NCBI GenBank assembly: GCA_044892505.1
Contig: CM097884.1
Coordinates: 160,828,001 to 160,892,000 of the forward strand
DNA length: 64,000 bases
From: Schmidtea nova
Lineage: Eukaryota
Direction of reading: 5' to 3'
Position numbers and translations under genes: made by a program
Notes under the pieces: model-generated
The model's input: only the letters and a program-made list of their open reading frames with translations
Told to the model about the DNA's origin: nothing
The model's database searches: none
In this document: positions 360 through 54,822 of the stretch, piece after piece
Numbering within the stretch: position 1 is the stretch's first letter
Layout of the letters: every line of letters starts with the position of its first letter

Positions 360-361
360 TA

Positions 362-2617: not shown

Positions 2618-2689
2618 TTCCCTGACCGGGAGTCGAACCCGGGCCACCTGGGTGAGAGCCAGGAATCCTAACCGCTAGACCATCAGGGA
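2618..2689 (-). tRNA. trnE-CTC: tRNA-Glu(CTC)
   Basis: Same as 362-433. Confidence 0.96.
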
Positions 2690-2993: not shown

Positions 2994-3046
2994 TTCCCTG
3001 ACCGGGAGTCGAACCCGGGCCACCTGGGTGAGAGCCAGGAATCCTA
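2994..3046 (-). pseudogene. tRNA-Glu disrupted by element copy 1 (nt 20-72 remain)
   Basis: Plus strand ...aggaatccta|gtaaacg instead of ...aggaatccta|accgctag. Confidence 0.95.
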
Positions 3047-3577
3047 GTAAACGTTTATTAATTATAATAAATTTTTCAAATTTACAATGGGACAATGCTC
3101 TACATGGAGCATGCCTTTCATGAAAGATACAGCAAATAAAGAGACAGAATTTCAATGATAGTTAAAATCAAATGTGAGAAAATAAGGTCTCAATAAATGT
3201 TGCTTTTCATAAATGTTCCCTGGCGATGATTTGAAATATTTCATCGGACTGTTTTTCCGGCTTTGCGACATCCTTCAGCCTATCTTTTCATGTCATGATC
3301 ACAGTCTTTTTGTTTTCTGAGGAATCCGCAGCAATAAAACTTCTTCACGAGTCAAGGTGTCTAGAGACATTGAGTTTACAGACGCTAGAATTGGTTCTAC
3401 TAAATAAATATACAAATATACATATATACATATATAAATCCTCGGACTCGGGCGGAAATAAATCTAAAATAAATTTTATCTACAAATTAAAAAAAAAGGT
3501 TTATACTATATACATTAAAATGGCAATTCTCCGCACAACGAGTGTCTGCATTTTGATCGTGGCATTCATTACAAATC

Positions 3578-6500
3578 TCACAAGTCTCTAAGATAACCAG
3601 TCGTATGAAAATGCCACCTATTGGCTGAGTGTTTGATATTACTTATCGCACACTGTTTCAAAAGAGGATCGATTTTCTTCAAAGGTATTCCAACCTTTAA
3701 AAGAACATCGAAAGTCAAAGGTGGAATTGATCCTAGAGAACCAATGATACAAGTGAGTAGTTCTACCTTGTAATCAGGTTTCGCGATTTGAATTGCCTTT
3801 CTTAACGATTCGTATTTTAACAGGTTTTCTTTATTTACCTGCTCAAAACTCGAAAGACAATCAATCGGACATTTCATGTCTACCATGAGAATTCTTTTCC
3901 TATTTACGTCGGTGATGATGAGGTCAACTCGCTCTTTAGAGTATGGAACCAACGAACAAGTTTGATCGATAACGACAATAAGATTCGGATCTGTCAGTTG
4001 ATCTGTTATCAATTTCAAGCAATCATTGTGTCTTTTTGTTGCAAGTGTTTGATGAACTTTACATGATTGCAAAACATGTGCCATTGTTTCCTCCTCAGAG
4101 TGGCAGCGACGACAAAGTCTTTCTTTTACATTTCGATAAGGTTTAGCTAGAAATGACAATGTATTCGTGCGAGCACGATGGATGAAATTCCAAGAGAATT
4201 CTGACAGATCACTTCGAAAGATTGCTTTATTGATCTTAGGCGAAAGAGTGATTGCTGATGCGATCAAATTACTTTTATTACTACTTTGCCATTTGGAAAG
4301 ATAAGAATCAAAAAGCGTATCATGCAAGATCTTAGAAATAGAATTCCGAAAATCGGGAGTTGCGATCAATGTACCTCGCTCTTTTGTTGTAATATGAAGC
4401 ACAGGTTCATTATTTAGGGTTTGAAAGGATATTCTAATGGCATGAATTTTATTCAGGAATTCTACAGATGTTCGCGCTCTCCGAAAACGTGTTTTCTTTC
4501 CATGATGGATGCGCTTGCATTCAATGCCATTTAACCAATCAAAGCTATCCTGAAGAGTTGGATGCTGAATTCCAAGTCGAGAACTAGTGACAAATTTCAA
4601 AGAGTCTGTATTGATCTTTTTTGCATAATTGCAAATGGAAGTAAAAAGTCGAAAAAAGTGCACTATGGTTTGGACATGATATTCGTCAAGCAGGTCAACA
4701 CAAGAAGCTCCACCATTTTCCGTGGAGTTGTAAAAATATGAAATCTCTGAATTTTCAGGAAGATTCATCATTTTTCTCAAATGACTTCTTAATTTACTTG
4801 TGTTGTTACCAGTGACATTGCTATTTCCATAAGGGATTGCCAAAGTACTTGTTTTTATTTCCCTCGTTCTAAAAGGAAAGATGAGGCGTGAATGTAGAAA
4901 AATCTTGTAAGCTTTGAGTTTTTGCCAGCCTAACAAGTCAGAGTTTGCAAGTTTTTTGGCGTCAGATATTACCTTATTTAGGATATCATAAGGGCTTTGA
5001 TCAATATCTTCTCCAACTGGGACACCAAGATACTGATAGAACTCGCGAGATAGTAATTTCTTGATTTTGATATTTTCAATAGAAATTTCACTATCTATGT
5101 GGACCTTAGGAAGTTGAATGTATCCACATTTTTCTGGTCGATATACAAAACCTATTTGTGCAGCAGTGTCAACAGCTATATCAGTGATTCGTTGCAAGTC
5201 ACTGACATTTTTTGATATTAAAGCAATGTCGTCTGCGTATGCAAGAATTTGTAACGGAGATGTGCCAATCATGAATGGTTCTACTGTCGATCGGCTGACA
5301 GCTTCAAGTACCGGATTAATCGCAATGGCGAATAAAATCATTGAAATTGGGCATCCTTGTTTCACCCCTTGTCTAATAGCTATGTTTGAAGTGAGAACTG
5401 GTCCGCAACTGTACATAGAAGATGTGTCGGAATAAAGTAGTTGCAATATCGTAGTGAACTCATCACATACGCCAATATATCGAAGGACAGACCACATGTA
5501 TTCATGAGGGACACTACCAAATGCGTCTTTAATGTCAAGCCATGCAATCGATATTGGACAATCTTTACTATATTTAGAGTGTTCCAAAGCAGCTGTCAGT
5601 ATGGAATTGTGTTCAACACAGCCATCGTGTTCTGAACCTCCCTTTTGTCCAATGTGTAGAATGTTGTTCAAATCTACCCAAGTAGTAAGACGTCTAGCCA
5701 ATATCGAAGCAAAAACCTTATAAATCACTGACAATAAGGCAATCGGCCTCCAAGATGACACATTATCGTATTTGTCATTCTTGTCAGGTTTCGGAATCAA
5801 AAGAGTCCTGAAAGATTTCCAATCATTTGGAACGATTTTATCGGTTATTATTCGGTTAAAAAGAAATGCAAGGAGATCCCCATCGGGATCCAAAAGACGC
5901 AAATCTCTATATTGAATACCATCAGAACCAGGAGATGTGTTGTCAGCTTTTTTAAGCTCAAACAATACCTCGACTGGCAATATTCGATCGAGTTTCAAAG
6001 GCTTTTGTGATTTTTTACAGAATTGAAGGACAGAATTCCAGCATTTGGATATAGGTAATGCGTGACTATAATATTTAATAATGTCTTCAATTGAAGGCCT
6101 TACATTTATTTTAAAATTATCAATGATTTTACTGACGGCTCTTTTCATTTCCGTCATAAATAGAGAAATAATTTGAGTTTTATTTAATTTTGAGTTATCT
6201 CTCTTATTTTTCCCTAAATAAAGTTTAAAAGTTGATTTCTTACGATCAGGAAATTCTTTGATAATTATGTCAATGATCTCATTGACAGTTGAAAATTTAA
6301 TTGCTATTAAAAGGTCTTTGATTTTAATTTTGCGTTGAATTAAATTTAATTTAACTAGTTCCTTTTCATTCCCTTTTGGTATTATTTTAGTGTTAATTTT
6401 ATTTGTTTTATTGGCAACTGGAACTAAGGAACTAATAACATTTCCAATATCGCGCAGGTTGATGTTTTCAAGGGATATGTCACAAGCATAATGTTTGATA

Positions 6501-8158
6501 AATGCGCATATAAGTATTTTACAGAGAAGACCTGAACCTCGCACATCATGTGGACAAATACCGTTTGTCAATGCACGACCAGGGGTTTCTCGTAATTCAT
6601 TAATTTTTTCAATGATGGTTTTACTCATTGAGAGATAATTAATACCGGATAAAAGAGTTGTTGGATTCAAAATATAATGTGCATCGGTATTGTAATCTAT
6701 TATTAATAAGTTTTCCCTTGATTTTTGGGGGGTTATAACTGAAAAAATGACTTGTGCTTTAACAAGACATTCATAATTTAGAAATGTACTGATGTATTGG
6801 GTACAATCATCGAGGATCGCCGTTGACATTGTTGCGTTTAACAAGATAAAGGTCGGTGATAATTTTAGATTGTTAAAATAAGTTGTTAGAATTTGATCGT
6901 CAAGCTTCCCATTTATTGTGTCTAAGTTTAAACAGATTTCATTTACATGTTTTAGTTTCAATGATTTTAGTGATTTTGTAGTATCTTCAAGATTGGCAAT
7001 GTTATTAAAAATTAACTTTTCTAATAAAGTAATGAAATATGATGCCATTATGATTGGTTCAACGGAAAATATTGGTGAGAAACTGATCTCGTGATCAATG
7101 GTAAAGTTAATCTTTCTCTGAAGGAAAAATTGATTCAAATAATCGGTCATATTTTCTCCTATACCGATTAATCTTTCTTTTACAGTTTGAAAGCCTGTAG
7201 TAAAAATGTGACTTTTTCCGAGTTGAACAGAGAACAGAAATAAGCACCAAGAGTTGTTATTTGGAATAATACTTATTACATGTTCAATGTATTGAAATTG
7301 TTTGAAAGTCACGTTTTCAATAATGAAAGCATTATTTTGCGCAACTATATTTGACGTTAATTCGGGAGAGAGAACCATTATATTAGTGTAGGTTGAAAAC
7401 CATTTATCAATCAATGTTGATATGCATGGGTTTTCGTTATATAGCATGATGTTATTTGCTTTGCTTTTATATCTAACTGCTTTCTTGAAGTTGATCAAGT
7501 TCATAAAGTTTGACTTTGGCGGACCACCTCCAATTGTTTTTGATGTAATAGTGGTACAGTTAGCATTATTATTGAAAACATCTTCCCTTATACTATTTAC
7601 AAAATTATCAGGAAAGTATTCCCAAACTTGACTAATTATCAATGCGTAAGCGCAGACAAAAGGCCCACAATCAAAGTCGTTATTTTGATATTCAAGTTTA
7701 ATATGGGGATTATATGTTACCGCCGCTTTAAGTTTAAACAATTTATTTAAAGCCATATTTATTTTAAGGGCGCTTGTTTTGTTGATAAATTTATTTTTAT
7801 TTTCAAGAATTGGATCAATGTAGTACGAAAGTAAGGATGATTTACAGTACACGAACAAGATCCAATGTGCGTTTGATATATTTAATGGGCAAAGTATTAT
7901 TTGTGCGTTAAACACTGTTTCTGGCAAGGAAATTATATTTTCCTCAAGATTTGCAAGTAAAATGCTAACAATATAACATTTAATGCAAGCATACATTTGG
8001 CTACTGATATGACGCTCAAGATAAAAGTCAATGTCATCATCAGTGAACCAGGCCTTTGGATCACGCACGGAATTTAAATTATTTACAGTTTTATTACTTG
8101 TGCTGTCTGCATCAGTCTCTTTTGAGATTGGGGCAGATATTAGGACTGATGCAGGCAC
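3578..8158 (-). CDS. ORF2: Ulp1/C48-like cysteine protease (+2 degenerate copies), reverse transcriptase, CCHC knuckle, restriction-like endonuclease (1526 aa; first codon is GTG, frame open to 8164)
   Basis: WFTDDDIDFY..H98W..D115P..Q158..DC164G; RT motifs WRPIALL, LDIKDAF, KQGCPIS, YADD (5228-5239), YLGV; CRRC-x8-H-x4-C; RHN; RVD-x14-DMK; KY; IIGSLG. Confidence 0.95.
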   Translation of the reverse strand: MPASVLISAPISKETDADSTSNKTVNNLNSVRDPKAWFTDDDIDFYLERHISSQMYACIKCYIVSILLANLEENIISLPETVFNAQIILCPLNISNAHWILFVYCKSSLLSYYIDPILENKNKFINKTSALKINMALNKLFKLKAAVTYNPHIKLEYQNNDFDCGPFVCAYALIISQVWEYFPDNFVNSIREDVFNNNANCTTITSKTIGGGPPKSNFMNLINFKKAVRYKSKANNIMLYNENPCISTLIDKWFSTYTNIMVLSPELTSNIVAQNNAFIIENVTFKQFQYIEHVISIIPNNNSWCLFLFSVQLGKSHIFTTGFQTVKERLIGIGENMTDYLNQFFLQRKINFTIDHEISFSPIFSVEPIIMASYFITLLEKLIFNNIANLEDTTKSLKSLKLKHVNEICLNLDTINGKLDDQILTTYFNNLKLSPTFILLNATMSTAILDDCTQYISTFLNYECLVKAQVIFSVITPQKSRENLLIIDYNTDAHYILNPTTLLSGINYLSMSKTIIEKINELRETPGRALTNGICPHDVRGSGLLCKILICAFIKHYACDISLENINLRDIGNVISSLVPVANKTNKINTKIIPKGNEKELVKLNLIQRKIKIKDLLIAIKFSTVNEIIDIIIKEFPDRKKSTFKLYLGKNKRDNSKLNKTQIISLFMTEMKRAVSKIIDNFKINVRPSIEDIIKYYSHALPISKCWNSVLQFCKKSQKPLKLDRILPVEVLFELKKADNTSPGSDGIQYRDLRLLDPDGDLLAFLFNRIITDKIVPNDWKSFRTLLIPKPDKNDKYDNVSSWRPIALLSVIYKVFASILARRLTTWVDLNNILHIGQKGGSEHDGCVEHNSILTAALEHSKYSKDCPISIAWLDIKDAFGSVPHEYMWSVLRYIGVCDEFTTILQLLYSDTSSMYSCGPVLTSNIAIRQGVKQGCPISMILFAIAINPVLEAVSRSTVEPFMIGTSPLQILAYADDIALISKNVSDLQRITDIAVDTAAQIGFVYRPEKCGYIQLPKVHIDSEISIENIKIKKLLSREFYQYLGVPVGEDIDQSPYDILNKVISDAKKLANSDLLGWQKLKAYKIFLHSRLIFPFRTREIKTSTLAIPYGNSNVTGNNTSKLRSHLRKMMNLPENSEISYFYNSTENGGASCVDLLDEYHVQTIVHFFRLFTSICNYAKKINTDSLKFVTSSRLGIQHPTLQDSFDWLNGIECKRIHHGKKTRFRRARTSVEFLNKIHAIRISFQTLNNEPVLHITTKERGTLIATPDFRNSISKILHDTLFDSYLSKWQSSNKSNLIASAITLSPKINKAIFRSDLSEFSWNFIHRARTNTLSFLAKPYRNVKERLCRRCHSEEETMAHVLQSCKVHQTLATKRHNDCLKLITDQLTDPNLIVVIDQTCSLVPYSKERVDLIITDVNRKRILMVDMKCPIDCLSSFEQVNKENLLKYESLRKAIQIAKPDYKVELLTCIIGSLGSIPPLTFDVLLKVGIPLKKIDPLLKQCAISNIKHSANRWHFHTTGYLRDL

Positions 8159-8167
8159 ACACCTTCA
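8099..8167 (-). promoter_or_regulatory. Putative UGA readthrough cassette (in-frame stop + downstream stem-loop), copy 1
   Basis: mRNA: UGA AGGUGUGUGC [CUGCAUCAGUC]-26 nt-[GACUGAUGCAG]; arms 8144-8154 and 8107-8117. Confidence 0.6.
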
Positions 8168-10909
8168 TTTATTTTTTTGTGTTACGCGCTTCGGTCTTTT
8201 AATAGTTTTGCGATGAATATTAATTATTTCCTCATTTGACGTAGCTGGACCTAAATCAATGTCAGTGGGAAGCAAGCGCTTAAGACTTTCTCTGTCTTTG
8301 TCTGATGTCAATAGAATGTTATCATCTATGTTAGGGGAAGGAGATATTTCTACAGATTCTTCATTAGAATCAACGACATTCTCAACAGTTTTCACACTAT
8401 CAATTGTTGTATCGACATTTTCAGCAATCGTCTCAGAATTTACATGTGGTAAAACATATTCAAGTAGTCTCGAAATGTGTACGCTCATACTAGGTGTACA
8501 AATTTTCCTACAATATTGAGGAACACGGAAACGTCTGTTGCCATTTAAGAAATATCTCTTATCTCTTATTACAAAAAACACGAGTCTCTTTGCTCTTAAA
8601 ATCTCATCATCGGTTAGTTCAGATTCAAAATCATTGATCTTACTAGATATTATATTAAGCGCCTTGATTTGATCCGACTTATTTGGAAGAGACTTATCTA
8701 CAAACTCTAAGAAAGCATTTAACTCAGAAATAGTTTTGGGAGAGATTATGTTATGGATCTTGTCAATCTCTTGAGACAAATTAACCTGCTTTAGTTTCAG
8801 AAGTCTTTCCTGACAACTAGTTTTATAATAAGAACTACTGAGATTCTCGATCATTTCTGGGCCCCATATCTCAATCGTGTCAATGTCCAATGAGTACGAG
8901 TTTTCAATATCTGTTATGGAATGCATTAAAAAGCAATTCCTAAGATAGTTTTGAACGTATATATCAAAACTCGGCTTAATAATTAATTTTAGGGAATCCC
9001 TTAATTTTAAATAATTTAGGTAAAAAATTATGTCAACCAGTTTTTGAGATGAAGTTGGTTGATCAAGAAGAGAACTAAACACATTGTCATCCTCTGACAT
9101 CTGAACAAAGTTCAGTAGCCCTAAATTAAACATGATATCGGAGGCACCATCTTCGTGCACAGCGACTGAATTTTCACTATAAATTTTAATAAATTTGCCC
9201 CCTGTAAATGAAATCTGTTCAGGGAATTTATTTTCAGATTTTAATTTTTCTATTAAATTATTTAATGCGTGAGGATTAGCATATGTGTTTTCAATAAAAC
9301 ACAATTCCTCAATTTCTGGGTGTGATTTAAATAAATTTTGTAATTGCAACCTTGACAATTCAGATGCAGTTTGAGTTGAGAAAATTTCATCTGAATCGCA
9401 AGTGCTAAGAATATCGAGCATTACAAAATCTCCGTCTAGATATTTAATCTGTGATTTTATTAAAAAGTCAGGGAGCTCTTTTCGCTGTTTTAATTCGCGA
9501 AGAATATTATTAATTTGTATTTCCCTGGACTTTAAATTACTAATAGACACAGTGCCGGCCAGTTTCGACGAAAGGGAACAAAGAAAACGCTTAATAATTG
9601 AAGAAGCCGGGACAAATTTCGTATTTGTATTGTTGGCCTTCAAAATGTTTGATCCAATCAAAAACGTCTTTGTAGAGGATTTTAAAATATTATTATTTAA
9701 AGGGACAACTTTATCAGGCACCAAATTCTGAAAAACACAGATATTATGATTTCTATAAAAGAAACCTTCAAACCCAGCGATGCTTAGTGGATTTTCCTCT
9801 TTTATAATAATTAAAAGGTCATTGTTAATTAAATCAAATTTGTTGCTTGATTCTTTTAATTTCAAAAGTTTGTGAAATTTGGGAAATAATCTAAGAAAAG
9901 AATTTTTCTCCTTTTTTGTTAATATACGCGGTAAAATATTTTCAAAAATTTCTTTTTTTAATTTAAGATGAGAATTTTTATTTTTATTATTATTTCTGAA
10001 ATTAGAATTTGATTTCATTTTCAAACTTTCCAATTTGAAATTTCGTTTATTTTGAAAGTTCTTATCAGTATTAAAATTATTTTTAGATTTAATTTCCTGA
10101 TCATTTGATTTTAAATTAGAAATGTTATTTGCAGTTGAAATTTCGAAATTTTCAAAATTTCGATTGTTTAAATTATCCAATTTAATCGCAGGTAAATTAA
10201 TATTTTCAAAAACAGGTTTAATAATTTTCTTTTTATTTTCATTATTATTATTAATAGTTATATTATAATTTTCCAGCCAATTTCCATCGATTGCATAGCT
10301 TTCAGGAGTAGATCCATCATCTAGTAGAAGGATCTTTTCAAAATTATTATTTTTATTAAAAAATAAATTTTTGTTATTTAAAGTACTTTTTACATTATTA
10401 TTATTATCTTTATAATCACTTAAATTTTGACTATTCGGCTTTTCTAGTTGAATTGTTCGTTCGTTTTTAGTCTGTGTAGAATTATTTCTGTAAATTGTCG
10501 ACTTATTTAATAAAATTTTATGACATGAATAGCAAAGATTGCCTGCACTTTTGTCATTTTTATTTACATTCAAAGAGTTGTCATACAATTCGCTATTTTT
10601 ATCTAAATTAGGAATTATTCTAAAATTTTCAATATTAGATTTACAATTAAAAGTAGATAAATTAGCATATAAATTACCACGACCAAAACCGGACACACCA
10701 TTGTCAGAATTACCATTGTGAAAATTACAATTATAATTTAAATTATCATTTAGATTTTTCGAACCAAAATTAGATATAGGTTTATTTACAAAATCTTGGT
10801 TCGAAACTTCCAAAAATTTAACAATATAATCTAACTTACAGTTATTAGAATAAATCATCCTTTCAAGCTCTGACAAATTCGCCCCAAATGGCACAAAATT
10901 ATCCTGCAT
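8165..10909 (-). CDS. ORF1 of retrotransposon, 914 aa, unknown function, Asn-rich N-terminal half
   Basis: ATG at 10909, TGA at 8165-8167; intact in all four complete copies; basic C-terminus HRKTIKRPKRVTQKNK. Confidence 0.85.
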   Translation of the reverse strand: MQDNFVPFGANLSELERMIYSNNCKLDYIVKFLEVSNQDFVNKPISNFGSKNLNDNLNYNCNFHNGNSDNGVSGFGRGNLYANLSTFNCKSNIENFRIIPNLDKNSELYDNSLNVNKNDKSAGNLCYSCHKILLNKSTIYRNNSTQTKNERTIQLEKPNSQNLSDYKDNNNNVKSTLNNKNLFFNKNNNFEKILLLDDGSTPESYAIDGNWLENYNITINNNNENKKKIIKPVFENINLPAIKLDNLNNRNFENFEISTANNISNLKSNDQEIKSKNNFNTDKNFQNKRNFKLESLKMKSNSNFRNNNKNKNSHLKLKKEIFENILPRILTKKEKNSFLRLFPKFHKLLKLKESSNKFDLINNDLLIIIKEENPLSIAGFEGFFYRNHNICVFQNLVPDKVVPLNNNILKSSTKTFLIGSNILKANNTNTKFVPASSIIKRFLCSLSSKLAGTVSISNLKSREIQINNILRELKQRKELPDFLIKSQIKYLDGDFVMLDILSTCDSDEIFSTQTASELSRLQLQNLFKSHPEIEELCFIENTYANPHALNNLIEKLKSENKFPEQISFTGGKFIKIYSENSVAVHEDGASDIMFNLGLLNFVQMSEDDNVFSSLLDQPTSSQKLVDIIFYLNYLKLRDSLKLIIKPSFDIYVQNYLRNCFLMHSITDIENSYSLDIDTIEIWGPEMIENLSSSYYKTSCQERLLKLKQVNLSQEIDKIHNIISPKTISELNAFLEFVDKSLPNKSDQIKALNIISSKINDFESELTDDEILRAKRLVFFVIRDKRYFLNGNRRFRVPQYCRKICTPSMSVHISRLLEYVLPHVNSETIAENVDTTIDSVKTVENVVDSNEESVEISPSPNIDDNILLTSDKDRESLKRLLPTDIDLGPATSNEEIINIHRKTIKRPKRVTQKNK

Positions 10910-11270
10910 TAATATTTTAAAAAATTTATTAACCTTTTCAATATCTTTCTTATAAATTTATTATAATGAGTTATTTAAACAAATTTATATTAAAGGTTTT
11001 CAAATTTCGAAATTTACTTTTCCTCGACAAAATCAAACAACGCATGGCAAATGTTTGCCATTTTCAATCAAATGACAATCTCTTTCACAAATCTCATAGA
11101 ATTTTGATTTTGTAAAATTATTAATAATTTTTTTTCAAATAATGGTAACGACCTTGGAACGTTTATATTAATCCAATTTGTTGAATTTGATTTTGAGTAG
11201 AGCAAATTAGTTTCGACAAATTTACAACGTTTACAATCTTATCATGATGATAAGATTGTAAAAAAAAATA

Positions 11271-11342
11271 TTCCCTGACCGGGAGTCGAACCCGGGCCAC
11301 CTGGGTGAGAGCCAGGAATCCTAACCGCTAGACCATCAGGGA
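11271..11342 (-). tRNA. trnE-CTC: tRNA-Glu(CTC), variant T9 terminator
   Basis: Same as 362-433. Confidence 0.96.
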
Positions 11343-11646
11343 TCGATATATGTTTCCAATCTCTAGTTAAAGGTTTTCGAATTTCGAAATTTACTTTTCC
11401 TCGACAAAATCAAACAACGCATGGCAAATGTTTGCCATTTTCAATCAAATGATAATCTCTTTCACAAATCTCATAGAATTTTGATTTTGTAAAATTATTA
11501 ATAATTTTTTTTCAAATAATGGTAACGACCTTGGAACGTTTATATTAATCCAATTTGTTGAATTTGATTTTGAGTAGAGCAAATTAGTTTCGACAAATTT
11601 ACAACGTTTACAATCTTATCATGATGATAAGAAAGTGAAAAAAATA

Positions 11647-11718
11647 TTCCCTGACCGGGAGACAAACCCGGGCCACCTGGGTGAGAGCCAGGAATCCTAA
11701 CCGCTAGACCATCAGGGA
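11647..11718 (-). pseudogene. tRNA-Glu with mutated T-loop/B-box
   Basis: GGTTCGAC changed to GGTTTGTC (11662, 11664; C56T, A58T). Confidence 0.75.
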
Positions 11719-12022
11719 TCGATATATGTTTCCAATCTCTAGTTAAAGGTTTTCGAATTTCGAAATTTACTTTTCCTCGACAAAATCAAACAACGCATGG
11801 CAAATGTTTGCCATTTTCAATCAAATGACAATCTCTTTCACAAATCTCATAGAATTTTAATTTTGTAAAATTATTAATAATTTTTTTTCAAATAATGGTA
11901 ACGACCTTGGAACGTTTATATTAATCCAATTTGTTGAATTTGATTTTGAGTAGAGCAAATTAGTTTCGACAAATTTACAACGTTTACAATCTTATCATGA
12001 TGATAAGAAAGTGAAAAAAATA

Positions 12023-12094
12023 TTCCCTGACCGGGAGTCGAACCCGGGCCACCTGGGTGAGAGCCAGGAATCCTAACCGCTAGACCATCAGGGA
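12023..12094 (-). tRNA. trnE-CTC: tRNA-Glu(CTC)
   Basis: Same as 362-433. Confidence 0.96.
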
Positions 12095-12398
12095 TCGATA
12101 TATGTTTCCAATCTCTAGTTAAAGGTTTTCGAATTTCGAAATTTACTTTTCCTCGACAAAATCAAACAACGCATGGCAAATGTTTGCCATTTTCAATCAA
12201 ATGACAATCTCTTTCACAAATCTCATAGAATTTTGATTTTGTAAAATTATTAATAATTTTTTTTCAAATAATGGTAACGACCTTGGAACGTTTATATTAA
12301 TCCAATTTGTTGAATTTGATTTTGAGTAGAGCAAATTAGTTTCGACAAATTTACAACGTTTACAATCTTATCATGATGATAAGAAAGTGAAAAAAATA

Positions 12399-12470
12399 TT
12401 CCCTGACCGGGAGTCGAACCCGGGCCACCTGGGTGAGAGCCAGGAATCCTAACCGCTAGACCATCAGGGA
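12399..12470 (-). tRNA. trnE-CTC: tRNA-Glu(CTC)
   Basis: Same as 362-433. Confidence 0.96.
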
Positions 12471-12774
12471 TCGATATATGTTTCCAATCTCTAGTTAAAG
12501 GTTTTCGAATTTCGAAATTTACTTTTCCTCGACAAAATCAAACAACGCATGGCAAATGTTTGCCATTTTCAATCAAATGACAATCTCTTTCACAATTCTC
12601 ATAGAATTTTGATTTTGTAAAATTATTAATAATTTTTTTTCAAATAATGGTAACGACCTTGGAACGTTTATATTAATCCAATTTGTTGAATTTGATTTTG
12701 AGTAGAGCAAATTAGTTTCGACAAATTTACAACGTTTACAATCTTATCATGATGATAAGAAAGTGAAAAAAATA

Positions 12775-12846
12775 TTCCCTGACCGGGAGTCGAACCCGGG
12801 CCACCTGGGTGAGAGCCAGGAATCCTAACCGCTAGACCATCAGGGA
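12775..12846 (-). tRNA. trnE-CTC: tRNA-Glu(CTC)
   Basis: Same as 362-433. Confidence 0.96.
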
Positions 12847-13150
12847 TCGATATATGTTTCCAATCTCTAGTTAAAGGTTTTCGAATTTCGAAATTTACTT
12901 TTCCTCGACAAAATCAAACAACGCATGGCAAATGTTTGCCATTTTCAATCAAATGACAATCTCTTTCACAAATCTCATAGAATTTTGATTTTGTAAAATT
13001 ATTAATAATTTTTTTTCAAATAATGGTAACGACCTTGGAACGTTTATATTAATCCAATTTGTTGAATTTGATTTTGAGTAGAGCAAATTAGTTTCGACAA
13101 ATTTACAACGTTTACAATCTTATCATGATGATAAGAAAGTGAAAAAAATA

Positions 13151-13222
13151 TTCCCTGACCGGGAGTCGAACCCGGGCCACCTGGGTGAGAGCCAGGAATC
13201 CTAACCGCTAGACCATCAGGGA
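13151..13222 (-). tRNA. trnE-CTC: tRNA-Glu(CTC)
   Basis: Same as 362-433. Confidence 0.96.
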
Positions 13223-13526
13223 TCGATATATGTTTCCAATCTCTAGTTAAAGGTTTTCGAATTTCGAAATTTACTTTTCCTCGACAAAATCAAACAACGC
13301 ATGGCAAATGTTTGCCATTTTCAATCAAATGACAATCTCTTTCACAATTCTCATAGAATTTTGATTTTGTAAAATTATTAATAATTTTTTTTCAAATAAT
13401 GGTAACGACCTTGGAACGTTTATATTAATCCAATTTGTTGAATTTGATTTTGAGTAGAGCAAATTAGTTTCGACAAATTTACAACGTTTACAATCTTATC
13501 ATGATGATAAGAAAGTGAAAAAAATA

Positions 13527-13598
13527 TTCCCTGACCGGGAGTCGAACCCGGGCCACCTGGGTGAGAGCCAGGAATCCTAACCGCTAGACCATCAGGGA
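13527..13598 (-). tRNA. trnE-CTC: tRNA-Glu(CTC)
   Basis: Same as 362-433. Confidence 0.96.
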
Positions 13599-13902
13599 TC
13601 GATATATGTTTCCAATCTCTAGTTAAAGGTTTTCGAATTTCGAAATTTACTTTTCCTCGACAAAATCAAACAACGCATGGCAAATGTTTGCCATTTTCAA
13701 TCAAATGACAATCTCTTTCACAAATCTCATAGAATTTTGATTTTGTAAAATTTTTAATAATTTTTTTTCAAATAATGGTAACGACCTTGGAACGTTTATA
13801 TTAATCCAATTTGTTGAATTTGATTTTGAGTAGAGCAAATTAGTTTCGACAAATTTACAACGTTTACAATCTTATCATGATGATAAGAAAGTGAAAAAAA
13901 TA

Positions 13903-13974
13903 TTCCCTGACCGGGAGTCGAACCCGGGCCACCTGGGTGAGAGCCAGGAATCCTAACCGCTAGACCATCAGGGA
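13903..13974 (-). tRNA. trnE-CTC: tRNA-Glu(CTC)
   Basis: Same as 362-433. Confidence 0.96.
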
Positions 13975-14278
13975 TCGATATATATTTCCAATCTCTAGTT
14001 AAAGGTTTTCGAATTTCGAAATTTACTTTTCCTCGACAAAATCAAACAACGCATGGCAAATGTTTGCCATTTTCAATCAAATGACAATCTCTTTCACAAT
14101 TCTCATAGAATTTTGATTTTGTAAAATTATTAATAATTTTTTTTCAAATAATGGTAACGACCTTGGAACGTTTATATTAATCCAATTTGTTGAATTTGAT
14201 TTTGAGTAGAGCAAATTAGTTTCGACAAATTTACAACGTTTACAATCTTATCATGATGATAAGAAAGTGAAAAAAATA

Positions 14279-14350
14279 TTCCCTGACCGGGAGTCGAACC
14301 CGGGCCACCTGGGTGAGAGCCAGGAATCCTAACCGCTAGACCATCAGGGA
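14279..14350 (-). tRNA. trnE-CTC: tRNA-Glu(CTC)
   Basis: Same as 362-433. Confidence 0.96.
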
Positions 14351-14654
14351 TCGATATATATTTCCAATCTCTAGTTAAAGGTTTTCGAATTTCGAAATTT
14401 ACTTTTCCTCGACAAAATCAAACAACGCATGGCAAATGTTTGCCATTTTCAATCAAATGACAATCTCTTTCACAATTCTCATAGAATTTTGATTTTGTAA
14501 AATTATTAATAATTTTTTTTCAAATAATGGTAACGACCTTGGAACGTTTATATTAATCCAATTTGTTGAATTTGATTTTGAGTAGAGCAAATTAGTTTCG
14601 ACAAATTTACAACGTTTACAATCTTATCATGATGATAAGAAAGTGAAAAAAATA

Positions 14655-14726
14655 TTCCCTGACCGGGAGTCGAACCCGGGCCACCTGGGTGAGAGCCAGG
14701 AATCCTAACCGCTAGACCATCAGGGA
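14655..14726 (-). tRNA. trnE-CTC: tRNA-Glu(CTC)
   Basis: Same as 362-433. Confidence 0.96.
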
Positions 14727-15030
14727 TCGATATATGTTTCCAATCTCTAGTTAAAGGTTTTCGAATTTCGAAATTTACTTTTCCTCGACAAAATCAAACA
14801 ACGCATGGCAAATGTTTGCCATTTTCAATCAAATGACAATCTCTTTCACAATTCTCATAGAATTTTGATTTTGTAAAATTATTAATAATTTTTTTTCAAA
14901 TATTGGTAACGACCTTGGAACGTTTATATTAATCCAATTTGTTGAATTTGATTTTGAGTAGAGCAAATTAGTTTCGACAAATTTACAACGTTTACAATCT
15001 TATCATGATGATAAGAAAGTGAAAAAAATA

Positions 15031-15102
15031 TTCCCTGACCGGGAGTCGAACCCGGGCCACCTGGGTGAGAGCCAGGAATCCTAACCGCTAGACCATCAGG
15101 GA
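15031..15102 (-). tRNA. trnE-CTC: tRNA-Glu(CTC)
   Basis: Same as 362-433. Confidence 0.96.
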
Positions 15103-15406
15103 TCGATATATGTTTCCAATCTCTAGTTAAAGGTTTTCGAATTTCGAAATTTACTTTTCCTCGACAAAATCAAACAACGCATGGCAAATGTTTGCCATTT
15201 TCAATCAAATGACAATCTCTTTCACAAATCTCATAGAATTTTGATTTTGTAAAATTATTAATAATTTTTTTTCAAATATTGGTAACGACCTTGGAACGTT
15301 TATATTAATCCAATTTGTTGAATTTGATTTTGAGTAGAGCAAATTAGTTTCGACAAATTTACAACGTTTACAATCTTATCATGATGATAAGAAAGTGAAA
15401 AAAATA

Positions 15407-15478
15407 TTCCCTGACCGGGAGTCGAACCCGGGCCACCTGGGTGAGAGCCAGGAATCCTAACCGCTAGACCATCAGGGA
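15407..15478 (-). tRNA. trnE-CTC: tRNA-Glu(CTC)
   Basis: Same as 362-433. Confidence 0.96.
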
Positions 15479-15782
15479 TCGATATATGTTTCCAATCTCT
15501 AGTTAAAGGTTTTCGAATTTCGAAATTTACTTTTCCTCGACAAAATCAAACAACGCATGGCAAATGTTTGCCATTTTCAATCAAATGACAATCTCTTTCA
15601 CAATTCTCATAGAATTTTGATTTTGTAAAATTATTAATAATTTTTTTTCAAATAATGGTAACGACCTTGGAACGTTTATATTAATCCAATTTGTTGAATT
15701 TGATTTTGAGTAGAGCAAATTAGTTTCGACAAATTTACAACGTTTACAATCTTATCATGATGATAAGAAAGTGAAAAAAATA

Positions 15783-15854
15783 TTCCCTGACCGGGAGTCG
15801 AACCCGGGCCACCTGGGTGAGAGCCAGGAATCCTAACCGCTAGACCATCAGGGA
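15783..15854 (-). tRNA. trnE-CTC: tRNA-Glu(CTC)
   Basis: Same as 362-433. Confidence 0.96.
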
Positions 15855-16158
15855 TCGATATATGTTTCCAATCTCTAGTTAAAGGTTTTCGAATTTCGAA
15901 ATTTACTTTTCCTCGACAAAATCAAACAACGCATGGCAAATGTTTGCCATTTTCAATCAAATGACAATCTCTTTCACAAATCTCATAGAATTTTGATTTT
16001 GTAAAATTATTAATAATTTTTTTTCAAATAATGGTAACGACCTTGGAACGTTTATATTAATCCAATTTGTTGAATTTGATTTTGAGTAGAGCAAATTAGT
16101 TTCGACAAATTTACAACGTTTACAATCTTATCATGATGATAAGAAAGTGAAAAAAATA

Positions 16159-16230
16159 TTCCCTGACCGGGAGTCGAACCCGGGCCACCTGGGTGAGAGC
16201 CAGGAATCCTAACCGCTAGACCATCAGGGA
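16159..16230 (-). tRNA. trnE-CTC: tRNA-Glu(CTC)
   Basis: Same as 362-433. Confidence 0.96.
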
Positions 16231-16534
16231 TCGATATATGTTTCCAATCTCTAGTTAAAGGTTTTCGAATTTCGAAATTTACTTTTCCTCGACAAAATCA
16301 AACAACGCATGGCAAATGTTTGCCATTTTCAATCAAATGACAATCTATTTCACAAATCTCATAGAATTTTGATTTTGTAAAATTATTAATAATTTTTTTT
16401 CAAATAATGGTAACGACCTTGGAACGTTTATATTAATCCAATTTGTTGAATTTGATTTTGAGTAGAGCAAATTAGTTTCGACAAATTTACAACGTTTACA
16501 ATCTTATCATGATGATAAGAAAGTGAAAAAAATA

Positions 16535-16606
16535 TTCCCTGACCGGGAGTCGAACCCGGGCCACCTGGGTGAGAGCCAGGAATCCTAACCGCTAGACCAT
16601 CAGGGA
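16535..16606 (-). tRNA. trnE-CTC: tRNA-Glu(CTC)
   Basis: Same as 362-433. Confidence 0.96.
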
Positions 16607-16910
16607 TCGATATATGTTTCCAATCTCTAGTTAAAGGTTTTCGAATTTCGAAATTTACTTTTCCTCGACAAAATCAAACAACGCATGGCAAATGTTTGCC
16701 ATTTTCAATCAAATGACAATCTCTTTCACAAATCTCATAGAATTTTGATTTTGTAAAATTATTAATAATTTTTTTTCAAATAATGGTAACGACCTTGGAA
16801 CGTTTATATTAATCCAATTTGTTGAATTTGATTTTGAGTAGAGCAAATTAGTTTCGACAAATTTACAACGTTTACAATCTTATCATGATGATAAGAAAGT
16901 GAAAAAAATA

Positions 16911-16982
16911 TTCCCTGACCGGGAGTCGAACCCGGGCCACCTGGGTGAGAGCCAGGAATCCTAACCGCTAGACCATCAGGGA
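16911..16982 (-). tRNA. trnE-CTC: tRNA-Glu(CTC)
   Basis: Same as 362-433. Confidence 0.96.
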
Positions 16983-17286
16983 TCGATATATGTTTCCAAT
17001 CTCTAGTTAAAGGTTTTCGAATTTCGAAATTTACTTTTCCTCGACAAAATCAAACAACGCATGGCAAATGTTTGCCATTTTCAATCAAATGACAATCTCT
17101 TTCACAATTCTCATAGAATTTTGATTTTGTAAAATTATTAATAATTTTTTTTCAAATATTGGTAACGACCTTGGAACGTTTATATTAATCCAATTTGTTG
17201 AATTTGATTTTGAGTAGAGCAAATTAGTTTCGACAAATTTACAACGTTTACAATCTTATCATGATGATAAGAAAGTGAAAAAAATA

Positions 17287-17358
17287 TTCCCTGACCGGGA
17301 GTCGAACCCGGGCCACCTGGGTGAGAGCCAGGAATCCTAACCGCTAGACCATCAGGGA
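17287..17358 (-). tRNA. trnE-CTC: tRNA-Glu(CTC)
   Basis: Same as 362-433. Confidence 0.96.
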
Positions 17359-17662
17359 TCGATATATGTTTCCAATCTCTAGTTAAAGGTTTTCGAATTT
17401 CGAAATTTACTTTTCCTCGACAAAATCAAACAACGCATGGCAAATGTTTGCCATTTTCAATCAAATGACAATCTCTTTCACAAATCTCATAGAATTTTGA
17501 TTTTGTAAAATTATTAATAATTTTTTTTCAAATAATGGTAACGACCTTGGAACGTTTATATTAATCCAATTTGTTGAATTTGATTTTGAGTAGAGCAAAT
17601 TAGTTTCGACAAATTTACAACGTTTACAATCTTATCATGATGATAAGAAAGTGAAAAAAATA

Positions 17663-17734
17663 TTCCCTGACCGGGAGTCGAACCCGGGCCACCTGGGTGA
17701 GAGCCAGGAATCCTAACCGCTAGACCATCAGGGA
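17663..17734 (-). tRNA. trnE-CTC: tRNA-Glu(CTC)
   Basis: Same as 362-433. Confidence 0.96.
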
Positions 17735-18038
17735 TCGATATATGTTTCCAATCTCTAGTTAAAGGTTTTCGAATTTCGAAATTTACTTTTCCTCGACAAA
17801 ATCAAACAACGCATGGCAAATGTTTGCCATTTTCAATCAAATGACAATCTCTTTCACAAATCTCATAGAATTTTGATTTTGTAAAATTATTAATAATTTT
17901 TTTTCAAATAATGGTAACGACCTTGGAACGTTTATATTAATCCAATTTGTTGAATTTGATTTTGAGTAGAGCAAATTAGTTTCGACAAATTTACAACGTT
18001 TACAATCTTATCATGATGATAAGAAAGTGAAAAAAATA

Positions 18039-18110
18039 TTCCCTGACCGGGAGTCGAACCCGGGCCACCTGGGTGAGAGCCAGGAATCCTAACCGCTAGA
18101 CCATCAGGGA
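18039..18110 (-). tRNA. trnE-CTC: tRNA-Glu(CTC)
   Basis: Same as 362-433. Confidence 0.96.
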
Positions 18111-18414
18111 TCGATATATGTTTCCAATCTCTAGTTAAAGGTTTTCGAATTTCGAAATTTACTTTTCCTCGACAAAATCAAACAACGCATGGCAAATGTT
18201 TGCCATTTTCAATCAAATGACAATCTCTTTCACAAATCTCATAGAATTTTGATTTTGTAAAATTATTAATAATTTTTTTTCAAATATTGGTAACGACCTT
18301 GGAACGTTTATATTAATCCAATTTGTTGAATTTGATTTTGAGTAGAGCAAATTAGTTTCGACAAATTTACAACGTTTACAATCTTATCATGATGATAAGA
18401 AAGTGAAAAAAATA

Positions 18415-18486
18415 TTCCCTGACCGGGAGTCGAACCCGGGCCACCTGGGTGAGAGCCAGGAATCCTAACCGCTAGACCATCAGGGA
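18415..18486 (-). tRNA. trnE-CTC: tRNA-Glu(CTC)
   Basis: Same as 362-433. Confidence 0.96.
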
Positions 18487-18790
18487 TCGATATATGTTTC
18501 CAATCTCTAGTTAAAGGTTTTCGAATTTCGAAATTTACTTTTCCTCGACAAAATCAAACAACGCATGGCAAATGTTTGCCATTTTCAATCAAATGACAAT
18601 CTCTTTCACAAATCTCATAGAATTTTGATTTTGTAAAATTTTTAATAATTTTTTTTCAAATAATGGTAACGACCTTGGAACGTTTATATTAATCCAATTT
18701 GTTGAATTTGATTTTGAGTAGAGCAAATTAGTTTCGACAAATTTACAACGTTTACAATCTTATCATGATGATAAGAAAGTGAAAAAAATA

Positions 18791-18843
18791 TTCCCTGACC
18801 GGGAGTCGAACCCGGGCCACTTGGGTGAGAGCCAGGAATCCAA
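18791..18843 (-). pseudogene. tRNA-Glu (variant allele) disrupted by element copy 2
   Basis: nt 20-72 remain; substitutions at 18821 and 18842 shared with gene 43254-43325. Confidence 0.95.
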
Positions 18844-19374
18844 GTAAACGTTTATTAATTATAATAAATTTTCCAAATTTACAATGGGACAATGCTCTAC
18901 ATGGAGCATGCCTTTCATGAAAGATACAGCAAATAAAGAGACAGAATTTCAATGATAGTTAAAATCAAATGTGAGAAAATAAGGTCTCAATAAATGTTGC
19001 TTTTCATAAATGTTCCCTGGCGATGATTTGAAATATTTCATCGGACTGTTTTTCCGGCTTTGCGGCATCCTTCAGCCTATCTTTTCATGTCATGATCACA
19101 GTCTTTTTGTTTTCTGAGGAATCCGCAGCAATAAAACTTCTTCACGAGTCAAGGTGTCTAGAGACATTGAGTTTACAGACGCTAGAATTGGTTCTACTAA
19201 ATAAATATACAAATATACATATATACATATATAAATCCTCGGACTCGGGCGGAAATAAATCTAAAATAAATTTTATCTACAAATTAAAAAAAAAGGTTTA
19301 TACTATATACATTAAAATGGCAATTCTCCGCACAACGAGTGTCCGCATTTTGATCGTGGCATTCATTACAAATC

Positions 19375-22300
19375 TCACAAGTCTCTAAGATAACCAGTCG
19401 TATGAAAATGCCACCTATTGGCTGAGTGTTTGATATTACTTATCGCACACTGTTTCAAAAGAGGATCGATTTTCTTCAAAGGTATTCCAACCTTTAAAAG
19501 AACATCGAAAGTCAAAGGTGGAATTGATCCTAGAGAACCAATGATACAAGTGAGTAGTTCTACCTTGTAATCAGGTTTCGCGATTTGAATTGCCTTTCTT
19601 AACGATTCGTATTTTAACAGGTTTTCTTTATTTACCTGCTCAAAACTCGAAAGACAATCAATCGGACATTTCATGTCTACCATGAGAATTCTTTTCCTAT
19701 TTACGTCGGTGATGATGAGGTCAACTCGCTCTTTAGAGTATGGAACCAACGAACAAGTTTGATCGATAACGACAATAAGATTCGGATCTGTCAGTTGATC
19801 TGTTATCAATTTCAAACAATCATTGTGTCTTTTTGTTGCAAGTGTTTGATGAACTTTACATGATTGCAAAACATGTGCCATTGTTTCCTCCTCAGAGTGG
19901 CAGCGACGACAAAGTCTTTCTTTTACATTTCGATAAGGTTTAGCTAGAAATGACAATGTATTCGTGCGAGCACGATGGATGAAATTCCAAGAGAATTCTG
20001 ACAGATCACTTCGAAAGATTGCTTTATTGATCTTAGGCGAAAGAGTGATTGCTGATGCGATCAAATTACTTTTATTACTACTTTGCCATTTGGAAAGATA
20101 AGAATCAAAAAGCGTATCATGCAAGATCTTAGAAATAGAATTCCGAAAATCGGGAGTTGCGATCAATGTACCTCGCTCTTTTGTTGTAATATGAAGCACA
20201 GGTTCATTATTTAGGGTTTGAAAGGATATCCTAATGGCATGAATTTTATTCAGGAATTCTACAGATGTTCGCGCTCTCCGAAAACGTGTTTTCTTTCCAT
20301 GATGGATGCGCTTGCATTCAATGCCATTTAACCAATCAAAGCTATCCTGAAGAGTTGGATGCTGAATTCCAAGTCGAGAACTAGTGACAAATTTCAAAGA
20401 GTCTGTATTGATCTTTTTTGCATAATTGCAAATGGAAGTAAAAAGTCGAAAAAAGTGCACTATGGTTTGGACATGATATTCGTCAAGCAGGTCAACACAA
20501 GAAGCTCCACCATTTTCCGTGGAGTTGTAAAAATATGAAATCTCTGAATTTTCAGGAAGATTCATCATTTTTCTCAAATGACTTCTCAATTTACTTGTGT
20601 TGTTACCAGTGACATTGCTATTTCCATAAGGGATTGCCAAAGTACTTGTTTTTATTTCCCTCGTTCTAAAAGGAAAGATGAGGCGTGAATGTAGAAAAAT
20701 CTTGTAAGCTTTGAGTTTTTGCCAGCCTAACAAGTCAGAGTTTGCAAGTTTTTTGGCGTCAGATATTACCTTATTTAGGATATCATAAGGGCTTTGATCA
20801 ATATCTTCTCCAACTGGGACACCAAGATACTGATAGAACTCGCGAGATAGCAATTTCTTGATTTTGATATTTTCAATAGAAATTTCACTATCTATGTGGA
20901 CCTTAGGAAGTTGAATGTATCCACATTTTTCTGGTCGATATACAAAACCTATTTGTGCAGCAGTGTCAACAGCTATATCAGTGATTCGTTGCAAGTCACT
21001 GACATTTTTTGATATTAAAGCAATGTCGTCTGCGTATGCAAGAATTTGTAACGGAGATGTGCCAATCATGAATGGTTCTACTGTCGATCGGCTGACAGCT
21101 TCAAGTACCGGATTAATCGCAATGGCGAATAAAATCATTGAAATTGGGCATCCTTGTTTCACCCCTTGTCTAATAGCTATGTTTGAAGTGAGAACTGGTC
21201 CGCAACTGTACATAGAAGATGTGTCGGAATAAAGTAGTTGCAATATCGTAGTGAACTCATCACATACGCCAATATATCGAAGGACAGACCACATGTATTC
21301 ATGAGGGACACTACCAAATGCGTCTTTAATGTCAAGCCATGCAATCGATATTGGACAATCTTTACTATATTTAGAGTGTTCCAAAGCAGCTGTCAGTATG
21401 GAATTGTGTTCAACACAGCCATCGTGTTCTGAACCTCCCTTTTGTCCAATGTGTAGAATGTTGTTCAAATCTACCCAAGTAGTAAGACGTCTAGCCAATA
21501 TCGAAGCAAAAACCTTATAAATCACTGACAATAAGGCAATCGGCCTCCAAGATGACACATTATCGTATTTGTCATTCTTGTCAGGTTTCGGAATCAAAAG
21601 AGTCCTGAAAGATTTCCAATCATTTGGAACGATTTTATCGGTTATTATTCGGTTAAAAAGAAATGCAAGGAGATCCCCATCGGGATCCAAAAGACGCAAA
21701 TCTCTATATTGAATACCATCAGAACCAGGAGATGTGTTGTCAGCTTTTTTAAGCTCAAACAATACCTCGACTGGCAATATTCGATCGAGTTTCAAAGGCT
21801 TTTGTGATTTTTTACAGAATTGAAGGACAGAATTCCAGCATTTGGATATAGGTAATGCGTGACTATAATATTTAATAATGTCTTCAATTGAAGGCCTTAC
21901 ATTTATTTTAAAATTATCAATGATTTTACTGACGGCTCTTTTCATTTCCGTCATAAATAGAGAAATAATTTGAGTTTTATTTAATTTTGAGTTATCTCTC
22001 TTATTTTTCCCTAAATAAAGTTTAAAAGTTGATTTCTTACGATCAGGAAATTCTTTGATAATTATGTCAATGATCTCATTGACAGTTGAAAATTTAATTG
22101 CTATTAAAAGGTCTTTGATTTTAATTTTGCGTTGAATTAAATTTAATTTAACTAGTTCCTTTTCATTCCCTTTTGGTATTATTTTAGTGTTAATTTTATT
22201 TGTTTTATTGGCAACTGGAACTAAGGAACTAATAACATTTCCAATATCGCGCAGGTTGATGTTTTCAAGGGATATGTCACAAGCATAATGTTTGATAAAT

Positions 22301-23955: not shown

Positions 23956-23964
23956 ACACCTTCA
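23896..23964 (-). promoter_or_regulatory. Putative UGA readthrough cassette, copy 2
   Basis: Same in-frame TGA and 11-bp stem as copy 1. Confidence 0.6.
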
Positions 23965-26721: not shown

Positions 26722-27081
26722 TAATATTTTAAAAAATTTATTTACCTTTTCAATATCTTTCTTATAAATTTATTATAATGAGTTATTTAAACAAATTTAT
26801 ATTAAAGGTTTTCAAATTTCGAAATTTACTTTTCCTCGACAAAATCAAACAACGCATGGCAAATGTTTGCCATTTTCAATCAAATGACAATCTCTTTCAC
26901 AAATCTCATAGAATTTTGATTTTGTAAAATTATTAATAATTTTTTTTCAAATAATGGTAACGACCTTGGAACGTTTATATTAATCCAATTTGTTGAATTT
27001 GATTTTGAGTAGAGCAAATTAGTTTCGACAAATTTACAACGTTTACAATCTTATCATGATGATAAGAAAGTGAAAAAAATA

Positions 27082-37509: not shown

Positions 37510-37518
37510 ACACCTTCA
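37450..37518 (-). promoter_or_regulatory. Putative UGA readthrough cassette, copy 3
   Basis: In-frame TGA; a synonymous change extends the stem to 12 bp. Confidence 0.6.
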
Positions 37519-54813: not shown

Positions 54814-54822
54814 ACACCTTCA
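54754..54822 (-). promoter_or_regulatory. Putative UGA readthrough cassette, copy 4
   Basis: In-frame TGA; stem core 10 bp in this copy. Confidence 0.55.

Follow-up and report, generated by a model that had tools for sequence, protein, structure and literature searches.

Candidate UGA readthrough between the two open reading frames of a tRNA-Glu-targeting retrotransposon in Schmidtea nova

The DNA analysed here, 64,000 nucleotides (nt) of Schmidtea nova contig CM097884.1 (positions 160,828,001 to 160,892,000 of assembly GCA_044892505.1; hereafter the window), is a tandem 376-bp repeat with one minus-strand tRNA-Glu(CTC) gene per unit. The array is split by four full-length copies and one window-cut copy of a 7.94-kb element, a site-specific R2-group retrotransposon without long terminal repeats (non-LTR) that is most like the planarian R5/LIN lineage. 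Its two open reading frames (ORFs) are contiguous in one minus-strand frame, and their sole separator is a TGA codon (8167-8165). An initial annotation of the window had placed the ORF1 stop in frame with ORF2, a GTG at 8158, and a fusion of 2443 residues across the stop; both coordinates and the length are correct. We consider programmed readthrough of the UGA into an ORF1-ORF2 polyprotein the best reading of these sequences, and a highly probable one. The features of copy 1 on which the argument turns are as follows.

8168..10909, minus strand: ORF1, 914 amino acids (aa) from the first ATG (10909); stop to stop 8165-10957
8165..8167, minus strand: in-frame UGA, the proposed readthrough site, in the context AAA-UGA-AGG
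8099..8159, minus strand: 3' stem-loop, with an outer helix (8159-8155/8103-8099), a 3-nt bulge and an inner helix (8154-8142/8119-8107)
8156..8158, minus strand: GTG at codon +3, the candidate start of a rival reading, forming the opening bases of the stem
3578..8164, minus strand: ORF2, 1528 codons, with its first AUG only at codon 57

The last codon of ORF1 is an invariant AAA (Lys). The 11-bp helix described initially (8154-8144/8117-8107), together with its extension, folds as claimed, at -23.8 kcal/mol (z -4.0), and none of 200 shuffled sequences was equally stable. Perfect stems of at least 11 bp starting within 15 nt occur at 10 of 2420 coding-region codon positions, which fall at two sites. 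The UGA is separated from the outer helix by 5-6 nt and from the inner one by 10 nt. All 30 fetched copies of the window's family have the TGA; these are the best-scoring of at least 150 matches, and rare variants are uncounted. Among the rows listed for four runs (contigs from one study, with transposase-adapter ends), there was no change at 8165-8167, and one of the four contained a low-depth joint of 7700-8100 with the stop retained; neither observation is evidence on expression, editing or splicing. The UGA and at least 10 bp of stem were also said to be kept in four complete copies, and this holds for all four full-length copies, of which copy 3 is not intact, having an insertion in ORF2. 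Because the copies are ~99.6% identical to each other, their agreement has no evidential weight. Four copies and one hairpin would by themselves make a weak case for the readthrough proposed in the initial annotation, and it is diverged families that supply the support.

Searches of the same genome, together with fetched stretches, gave ten distinct intact families of the window's clade with this junction, which we call type I. Duplicates (L032, L041, L044, L046, L048, L049, L051, L052, L054, L056, L058, L061, L062, L070, L076, L079) and truncated or decayed copies (L033, L035-L040, L042, L045, L059, L069) were left out of the count; where visible, their junction is also an in-frame TGA. Some of the ten families occupy arrays of tRNA-Glu, tRNA-Gly, tRNA-Met or tRNA-Ala genes, and others are next to 5S genes or are dispersed; pairwise identity is 31-69% in ORF1 and 52-80% in ORF2. 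In each of them an ORF1 of 744-925 aa ends in AAA-TGA and is followed, in the same frame, by an ORF2 of 1522-1543 codons. Synonymous change is strikingly reduced at the junction. Of 1949 nine-codon windows, the 21 with the least synonymous change begin without exception between codons -4 and +19, with observed/expected values of 0.15-0.36 against a mean of 1.01 (standard deviation 0.16), and the two peaks of synonymous conservation coincide with the two stem arms. Seven codons (AAA, TGA, GTG, CCT, GAG, ACT and GCA) are identical in all ten families. Off the junction, 56 K/E/Q columns have an invariant residue, and 4 of them keep a single codon; for V/P/A/T/G columns the figure is 1 of 110. By this comparison, strong constraint at the nucleotide level acts on the junction stop and stem in all ten families.

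Of the 18 pairs of the stem, ten are invariant and three have one-sided variants, and 88.9% of cells are paired. There is no covariation, and support for the stem is hence its invariance and folding energy. The junction otherwise has what is seen in structure-stimulated readthrough: a conserved 3' stem, a spacer that to the inner helix lies in the usual 7-12 nt range, and synonymous peaks. The base at +4 is A, G or U in all ten families, two of which read UGA-UGG.

The stem also contains the GTG from which ORF2 could conceivably start. Ribosomes would then terminate at the UGA and reinitiate at the GUG 6 nt further on, with the assistance of structure as in SART1, yielding a separate 1526-aa ORF2 protein. 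That the GTG is invariant in 10/10 families agrees with such a start, as does the calling of five of six database relatives from the GTG position, where an ATG is possible as their DNA is not visible. Yet base pairing in the stem begins with this very triplet, which accounts for its lack of variation, and the GTG has a poor context, with a pyrimidine at -3 in nine families and C at +4 in all ten. By the Kozak rule, these bases disfavour a near-cognate start. Reinitiation also leaves the fixed AAA-TGA unexplained, and the junctions of the sister clade described below (types II and III) are without any common start. SART1 does need structure downstream of its stop-start site (PMC5972666, PMC3708506, as far as these sources were available), and on balance we regard reinitiation at the GUG as unlikely.

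A start at a downstream AUG, by L1-like reinitiation or internal initiation and with the stem serving RNA binding or packaging, faces a different difficulty. In the window, the first in-frame ATG (codon 57 after the stop, or residue 55 counted from the GTG) lies behind the protease motif WFTDDDIDFY at codon 39, as had been noted. In the type I families the first in-frame ATG is scattered between codons 37 and 258. It lies beyond the catalytic His in four of ten and between the Trp motif and the His in another four, and the catalytic triad is invariant nonetheless. An AUG upstream of the protease motif, which the initial annotation had regarded as potentially refuting, is present in two of ten families (L043 and L047, one codon before the Trp motif), though both keep the stop and the stem. 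These two families, and a stem whose function is a prediction, are what a downstream start has in its favour; it seems to us very improbable. Unlike in SART1, there is no AUG at or overlapping the stop in the frame of ORF2. The AUG that overlaps the stop in AAAUGA is in the -1 frame and opens just 15-24 codons, ending at varying places among the type I families. Restart at this AUGA followed by a +1 shift was considered separately and is ruled out, since the mini-frame ends at different codons.

Further evidence comes from a sister clade. Two reverse transcriptase (RT) trees were built, both quick searches of unnamed relatives with support from the Shimodaira-Hasegawa-like approximate likelihood ratio test only. 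In the first, the window's clade comprises 16 rows (support 96), a second clade 18 rows (99), and the joint group 35 rows (98). The sister lineages are ~30% identical to the window's element in ORF2. Six families carry what we term a type II junction, which reads TGA-CTA, as it does in all eight loci examined at first; one of the six, a metagenome locus from another sample (L080), on its own long branch in the second tree, reads TGA-CTA-G. The type II UGA occupies the Trp column of the protease motif, directly after two CCHH fingers and before the protease. These families have no common start codon, and in three of six the first ATG lies past the catalytic His. In the two type III families the junction is GCC-TGA-CGA or GCC-TGA-CAA with a short stem, ~160-170 codons upstream of the type II column. 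One of them (L160-165/174, six loci) has TGG in the type II stop column and its own UGA-CGA and stem ~170 codons upstream; the other has a Pro codon in that column. The CCHH fingers, found only in the sister clade, form the end of ORF1 in type II and the start of ORF2 in type III. Depending on the family, the same protein stretch precedes or follows the stop, in one frame throughout, so the stop has shifted its place inside a single continuous protein. Such movement would be expected of a polyprotein with a leaky stop and appears hard to explain by separate initiation.

The Trp column raises the possibility that the stop is removed in RNA, by adenosine-to-inosine editing (UGA then being read as Trp) or by splicing; the duplex that adjoins the stop in type I also fits this reading. 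Under cis preference, the RNAs that make RT are those copied back, so edited or spliced DNA copies, with TGG or without the junction, should accumulate. All 30 fetched (top-scoring) copies keep TGA, and we give removal at the RNA level very little credence. Incorporation of selenocysteine at the UGA, with the stem as a redefinition element, is the least probable of the explanations we weighed. It would account for a junction stop that is TGA in 14/14 families, and stems 3' of selenocysteine codons are known (PMC3159437, available in part). However, there is no selenocysteine insertion sequence (SECIS) family among the 11 Rfam matches (E up to 10) over the element, a rough SECIS scan gave none in the window's family and two unconserved matches in 14 3' untranslated regions (UTRs), and the stop falls in a linker or in the Trp column, never at Cys. 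A nuclear code in which UGA means Trp is ruled out by the true ends of ORF2, which are TAA in 11, TGA in two and TAG in one of the 14 families.

Several observations weigh against readthrough. The strongest arguments for it come from the sister lineages and not from the window's own junction. Here the base at +4 is A, and the C (CUA/CGG) that marks the UGA-CUA/CGG readthrough class is missing; the sister families with a type II junction have it (CUA), and those of type III come close (CGA/CAA). Covariation across related families, a check suggested at the outset, gave a negative answer: no stem pair has a two-sided compensatory change in the ten families, and the fraction of cells paired is not above that of the shuffle control (186/500). 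The invariant GTG, the start calls in database relatives, and the early ATG of L043 and L047 belong here too. Among eight ORF1 relatives from other samples in which the C-terminus is apparently reached, three end in Lys. None of 29 ORF1 homologs, the longest of 960 aa, is a natural single-ORF fusion of ORF1 and ORF2. A clear stem is lacking within 90 nt in type II, the upstream part of type III copies is decayed, with 71-312 open codons, and a pattern-based junction scan left six of 30 loci without a match.

Programmed readthrough nevertheless remains our preferred explanation. The sequences establish the shared frame, the stop, the potential to form a stem, the domains encoded, the target site and the conservation; readthrough is what we infer from them. 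We suggest that translation would start at the ORF1 AUG and that most ribosomes would terminate at UGA 8167, yielding ORF1p. A minority may decode the UGA with a near-cognate tRNA, aided by the 5' adenines and the 3' stem, to make a 2443-aa ORF1-protease-RT-endonuclease polyprotein. The outcome would be a high ratio of ORF1p to RT, like that of Gag to Gag-Pol. The proposed stimulus differs by type: in type I it would be the adenines at -1/-2 together with the 3' stem, in type II CUA, and in type III the +4 C with a short stem. Near-cognate decoding of UGA inserts Trp, Cys or Arg. The Trp column of type II makes Trp a plausible inserted residue, a suggestion we put less firmly than readthrough itself.

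The polyprotein would contain its own protease. The remaining features of copy 1 within ORF2 and downstream of it are as follows.

7565..8050, minus strand: Ulp1/SENP-like cysteine protease (Pfam Peptidase_C48, E 1.5e-6; PDB Ulp1 1euv, E 9e-9, profile positions 29-179)
7520..7534, minus strand: conserved di/tri-Gly motif directly after the protease (di-Gly at ORF2 residues 212-214), a candidate self-cleavage site
6395..7483, minus strand: two degenerate Ulp1-like repeats (residues ~228-405 and 406-590), catalytic His replaced
5021..5797, minus strand: RT, with YADD at 5239-5228 (Pfam RVT_1, E 1.9e-26; PDB R2 protein 9nl2, E 9e-81)
3866..4207, minus strand: CCHC knuckle and restriction-like endonuclease (RLE) motif (zf-RVT, E 0.0015, under the Pfam cut-off)
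3047..3577, minus strand: 3' UTR, ending in AATAAA plus 7 nt, with a LIN25_SM-like tail

The protease residues (the Trp39 motif, His100, Asp117, Gln160 and Cys166) are invariant across 16 sequences. A Gly-Gly follows the protease in all ten type I families and in five of six database relatives, and most type II and III rows have a di-Gly-like motif ahead of the fingers. Ulp1-family enzymes cleave after Gly-Gly, and self-processing could for this reason free the RT-endonuclease part. That the element's protease itself makes this cut, at the conserved di-Gly, is a tentative proposal, which we think somewhat more likely to fail than to hold. The three Ulp1-like repeats were matched to one another by hhalign (E 1.2e-4, 6.1e-5 and 2.5e-5; RT controls 0.14 and 0.27), and the degenerate repeats explain the longer ORF2 of the window's clade.

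The best PDB matches of the RT are R2 proteins (E 9e-81 to 5e-38), followed by L1 ORF2p (8e-25). Invariant residues near the C-terminus include C1351, C1354, H1363, C1368, R1412, D1414, D1429 and K1431, of which we take the R-x-D...D-x-K set to be the RLE motif of the R2 group; there is no APE family among the Pfam matches of the element. ORF1p is without a recognisable family or fold. Its only Pfam match is below threshold, an AlphaFold model of its last 601 residues (mean confidence score, pLDDT, 69.8) had no Foldseek match at E 0.001, and the best VIA Z was 6.9, to a small helical bundle, the whole model and not single domains having been queried. No relatives of the element were found in viral contigs, and the ten distant RT loci in prokaryote genome contigs include none from its lineage.

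The arrangement of the copies in the array, all on the minus strand, is given below.

10990..18841, minus strand: tRNA-Glu(CTC) 376-bp array; also 1-3046, 26802-32396, 40341-49698 and 57660-59121
2994..3046, minus strand: 3' part of an interrupted tRNA-Glu(CTC) gene, from nt 20
3047..10989, minus strand: copy 1, a full-length non-LTR retrotransposon of the R2 group, LIN25-like, 7943 bp, assigned from junctions, ORFs and domains
18844..26801, minus strand: copy 2, both ORFs open, TGA at 23964-23962
32397..40340, minus strand: copy 3, ORF2 frameshifted, TGA at 37518-37516
49699..57659, minus strand: copy 4, one stem pair broken, TGA at 54822-54820
59122..64000, minus strand: copy 5, running off the end of the window before the junction

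Insertion is specific to a site in a multicopy gene, as in the R2 group. The 3' junctions are at the same position in all five copies (tRNA-Glu nt 19/20), and each of the four 5' junctions (10989/10990, 26801/26802, 40340/40341 and 57659/57660) lacks an identical 43-bp piece of target that takes in tRNA nt 1-19. This uniform loss reflects either precise staggered cutting or one insertion spread via array recombination. The ORF2 of copy 3 (32928-37515, minus strand) has a 1-nt insertion ~2.2 kb in. Copies 2 and 4 have a 15-bp in-frame duplication in ORF1 (26164-26192 and 57022-57050; 919 versus 914 aa), such that two subtypes alternate along the array.

Other members of the lineage in this one genome have many target specificities: 5S (L050), 28S (L074), tRNA-Gly (L031/L034), tRNA-Met (L055/L060), tRNA-Thr (L061), tRNA-Ala (L057), tRNA-Lys (L065) and, in L053, a 5S-like antisense flank with no Rfam match. 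Cut positions inside the tRNA gene differ between families. In the tRNA-Lys-targeting L065, from the sister clade, ORF1 residues 181-247 belong to a 70-aa segment 41% identical to window ~9731-9928 (minus strand); it had no BLAST match in the ORF1s of L063 or L074 and is a candidate for a tRNA-gene targeting module or for recombination. The ORF1 start peptide of L063 and L067 matches a translation of the antisense 28S sequence that is printed for the 5' boundary of LIN9_SM, and target-derived 28S sequence may supply the ORF1 AUG there.

A comparable layout was seen in unrelated elements. Among 90 distant RT loci, 22 have a readable APE start, and seven of these have at least 285 in-frame codons before a single stop. 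APE-type elements in which a single in-frame stop divides a long ORF1 from an APE-RT ORF2 include L099 (stop site 1580-1588), L104 (1358-1366), L114 (1070-1075), L103 (4438-4441), L178 (1561-1564) and L180 (1370-1373). ORF2 opens 6-18 codons before the first APE motif, the first Met lies mostly past the motif, and the stop contexts are UAG-CAA-UCA, UAG-CAA-GCA, UGA-CGG and UAG-G. It is possible that readthrough arose independently in these long interspersed nuclear elements (LINEs). A metagenome RT locus near the two clades, on a long branch (L082, 495-500), has an in-frame AAA-TGA-TGG after 164 open codons and has a predicted stem after the stop (-26.6 kcal/mol per 100 nt) and no protease motif. 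In its broadest form, our proposal is that UGA readthrough yields an ORF1-RT polyprotein throughout the R5/LIN-like lineage, self-trimmed at the di-Gly, with a recoding site that moved at least twice and took up different signals (AAA-UGA with a long stem; UGA-CUA; UGA-CGA with a short stem), and that APE-type LINEs do likewise independently. We regard this as close to an even call, falling slightly on the side of doubt.

How ORF2 is produced is an open question for most two-ORF LINEs. If true, readthrough would add a Gag-Pol-type solution and would give the clade's otherwise unexplained Ulp1-like protease a job, and types I-III would offer a naturally occurring set of readthrough signals within a single protein scaffold. 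There is a consequence for annotation as well: calling ORF2 from the first start codon cuts into the protease and, for the sister clade, also omits the zinc fingers, which is relevant to reconstitution of the tRNA-, 5S- and 28S-targeting enzymes.

The closest known system is the R5/LIN lineage of planarians (NeSL clade). LIN25_SM also inserts in sense into tRNA-Glu genes, its 3' tail is near-identical, and the tRNA-Glu-CTC target in S6 Fig of the partly available source matches the window's gene (PMC4640811). This match by itself would point to a planarian-like host. The two differ in that LIN25_SM inserts at tRNA nt 4/5, and the window's element at nt 19/20 with 43 bp lost. Target diversification is reported for the lineage, and the window's relatives lie in other tRNA arrays and in 5S and 28S genes; in the available part of that article ORF layout and translation are not discussed, and none of the terms 'ORF1', 'two ORF' or 'stop codon' appears (PMC4640811). 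No named R5/LIN protein was among the database matches. None of the papers returned by full-text searches reports readthrough in R5/LIN or in any other non-LTR element, the 2003 R5 paper and Repbase being outside these searches. The 2003 paper reportedly describes two ORFs, and an earlier remark on the in-frame stop in the R5 literature is possible. The element family is probably already known, and readthrough itself is a known mechanism; their combination seems not to have been described before, nor do the three signal types or the shifting stop.

With NeSL-1 and Utopia-1_TSP of nematodes the element shares an Ulp1-like protease N-terminal to the RT, as in protease-bearing members of the NeSL clade, a CCHC knuckle and an RLE (PMC4640811, in part). 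It differs from them by a long extra ORF1 with the in-frame UGA before the protease, and its clade carries two extra, degenerate copies of the protease and lacks a CCHH finger at the junction. Nor does it have the canonical R2/NeSL architecture of a single ORF with N-terminal zinc fingers (PMC5678591, in part), there being two in-frame ORFs. The available parts of PMC1291365, PMC7650587 and PMC5678591 hold nothing further on the junction of these elements. The expression modes named for non-LTR elements in the sources at hand, each partly available, are reinitiation, StopGo and frameshifting (PMC5009743, PMC5972666, PMC3708506). SART1 is, like the window's element, a two-ORF non-LTR element with structure 3' of the ORF1 stop, whereas SART1 and L1 reinitiate at an AUG, via an overlapping UAAUG or after a 63-nt spacer (PMC5972666, PMC3708506); the window's element has no in-frame AUG near the stop, and its ORFs are in one frame.

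A further parallel is viral. Stop-codon readthrough is described at alphavirus nsP3/4, at the UGA sites of furoviruses and tobraviruses, and in gammaretroviral gag-pol (PMC3159437, in part). The present case differs in occurring in a non-LTR retrotransposon, in its UGA-AGG context, in a simple stem with no pseudoknot seen, and in being a predicted site. It is like the viral sites in its in-frame stop, -1/-2 adenines, short spacer and 3' stem appearing as two synonymous peaks (PMC3159437). The UGA-UGG of two type I families is also that of sorghum chlorotic spot virus, and the sister families carry UGA-CGA and UGA-CUA, the latter being the type II readthrough motif of Firth 2011 (PMC3159437).

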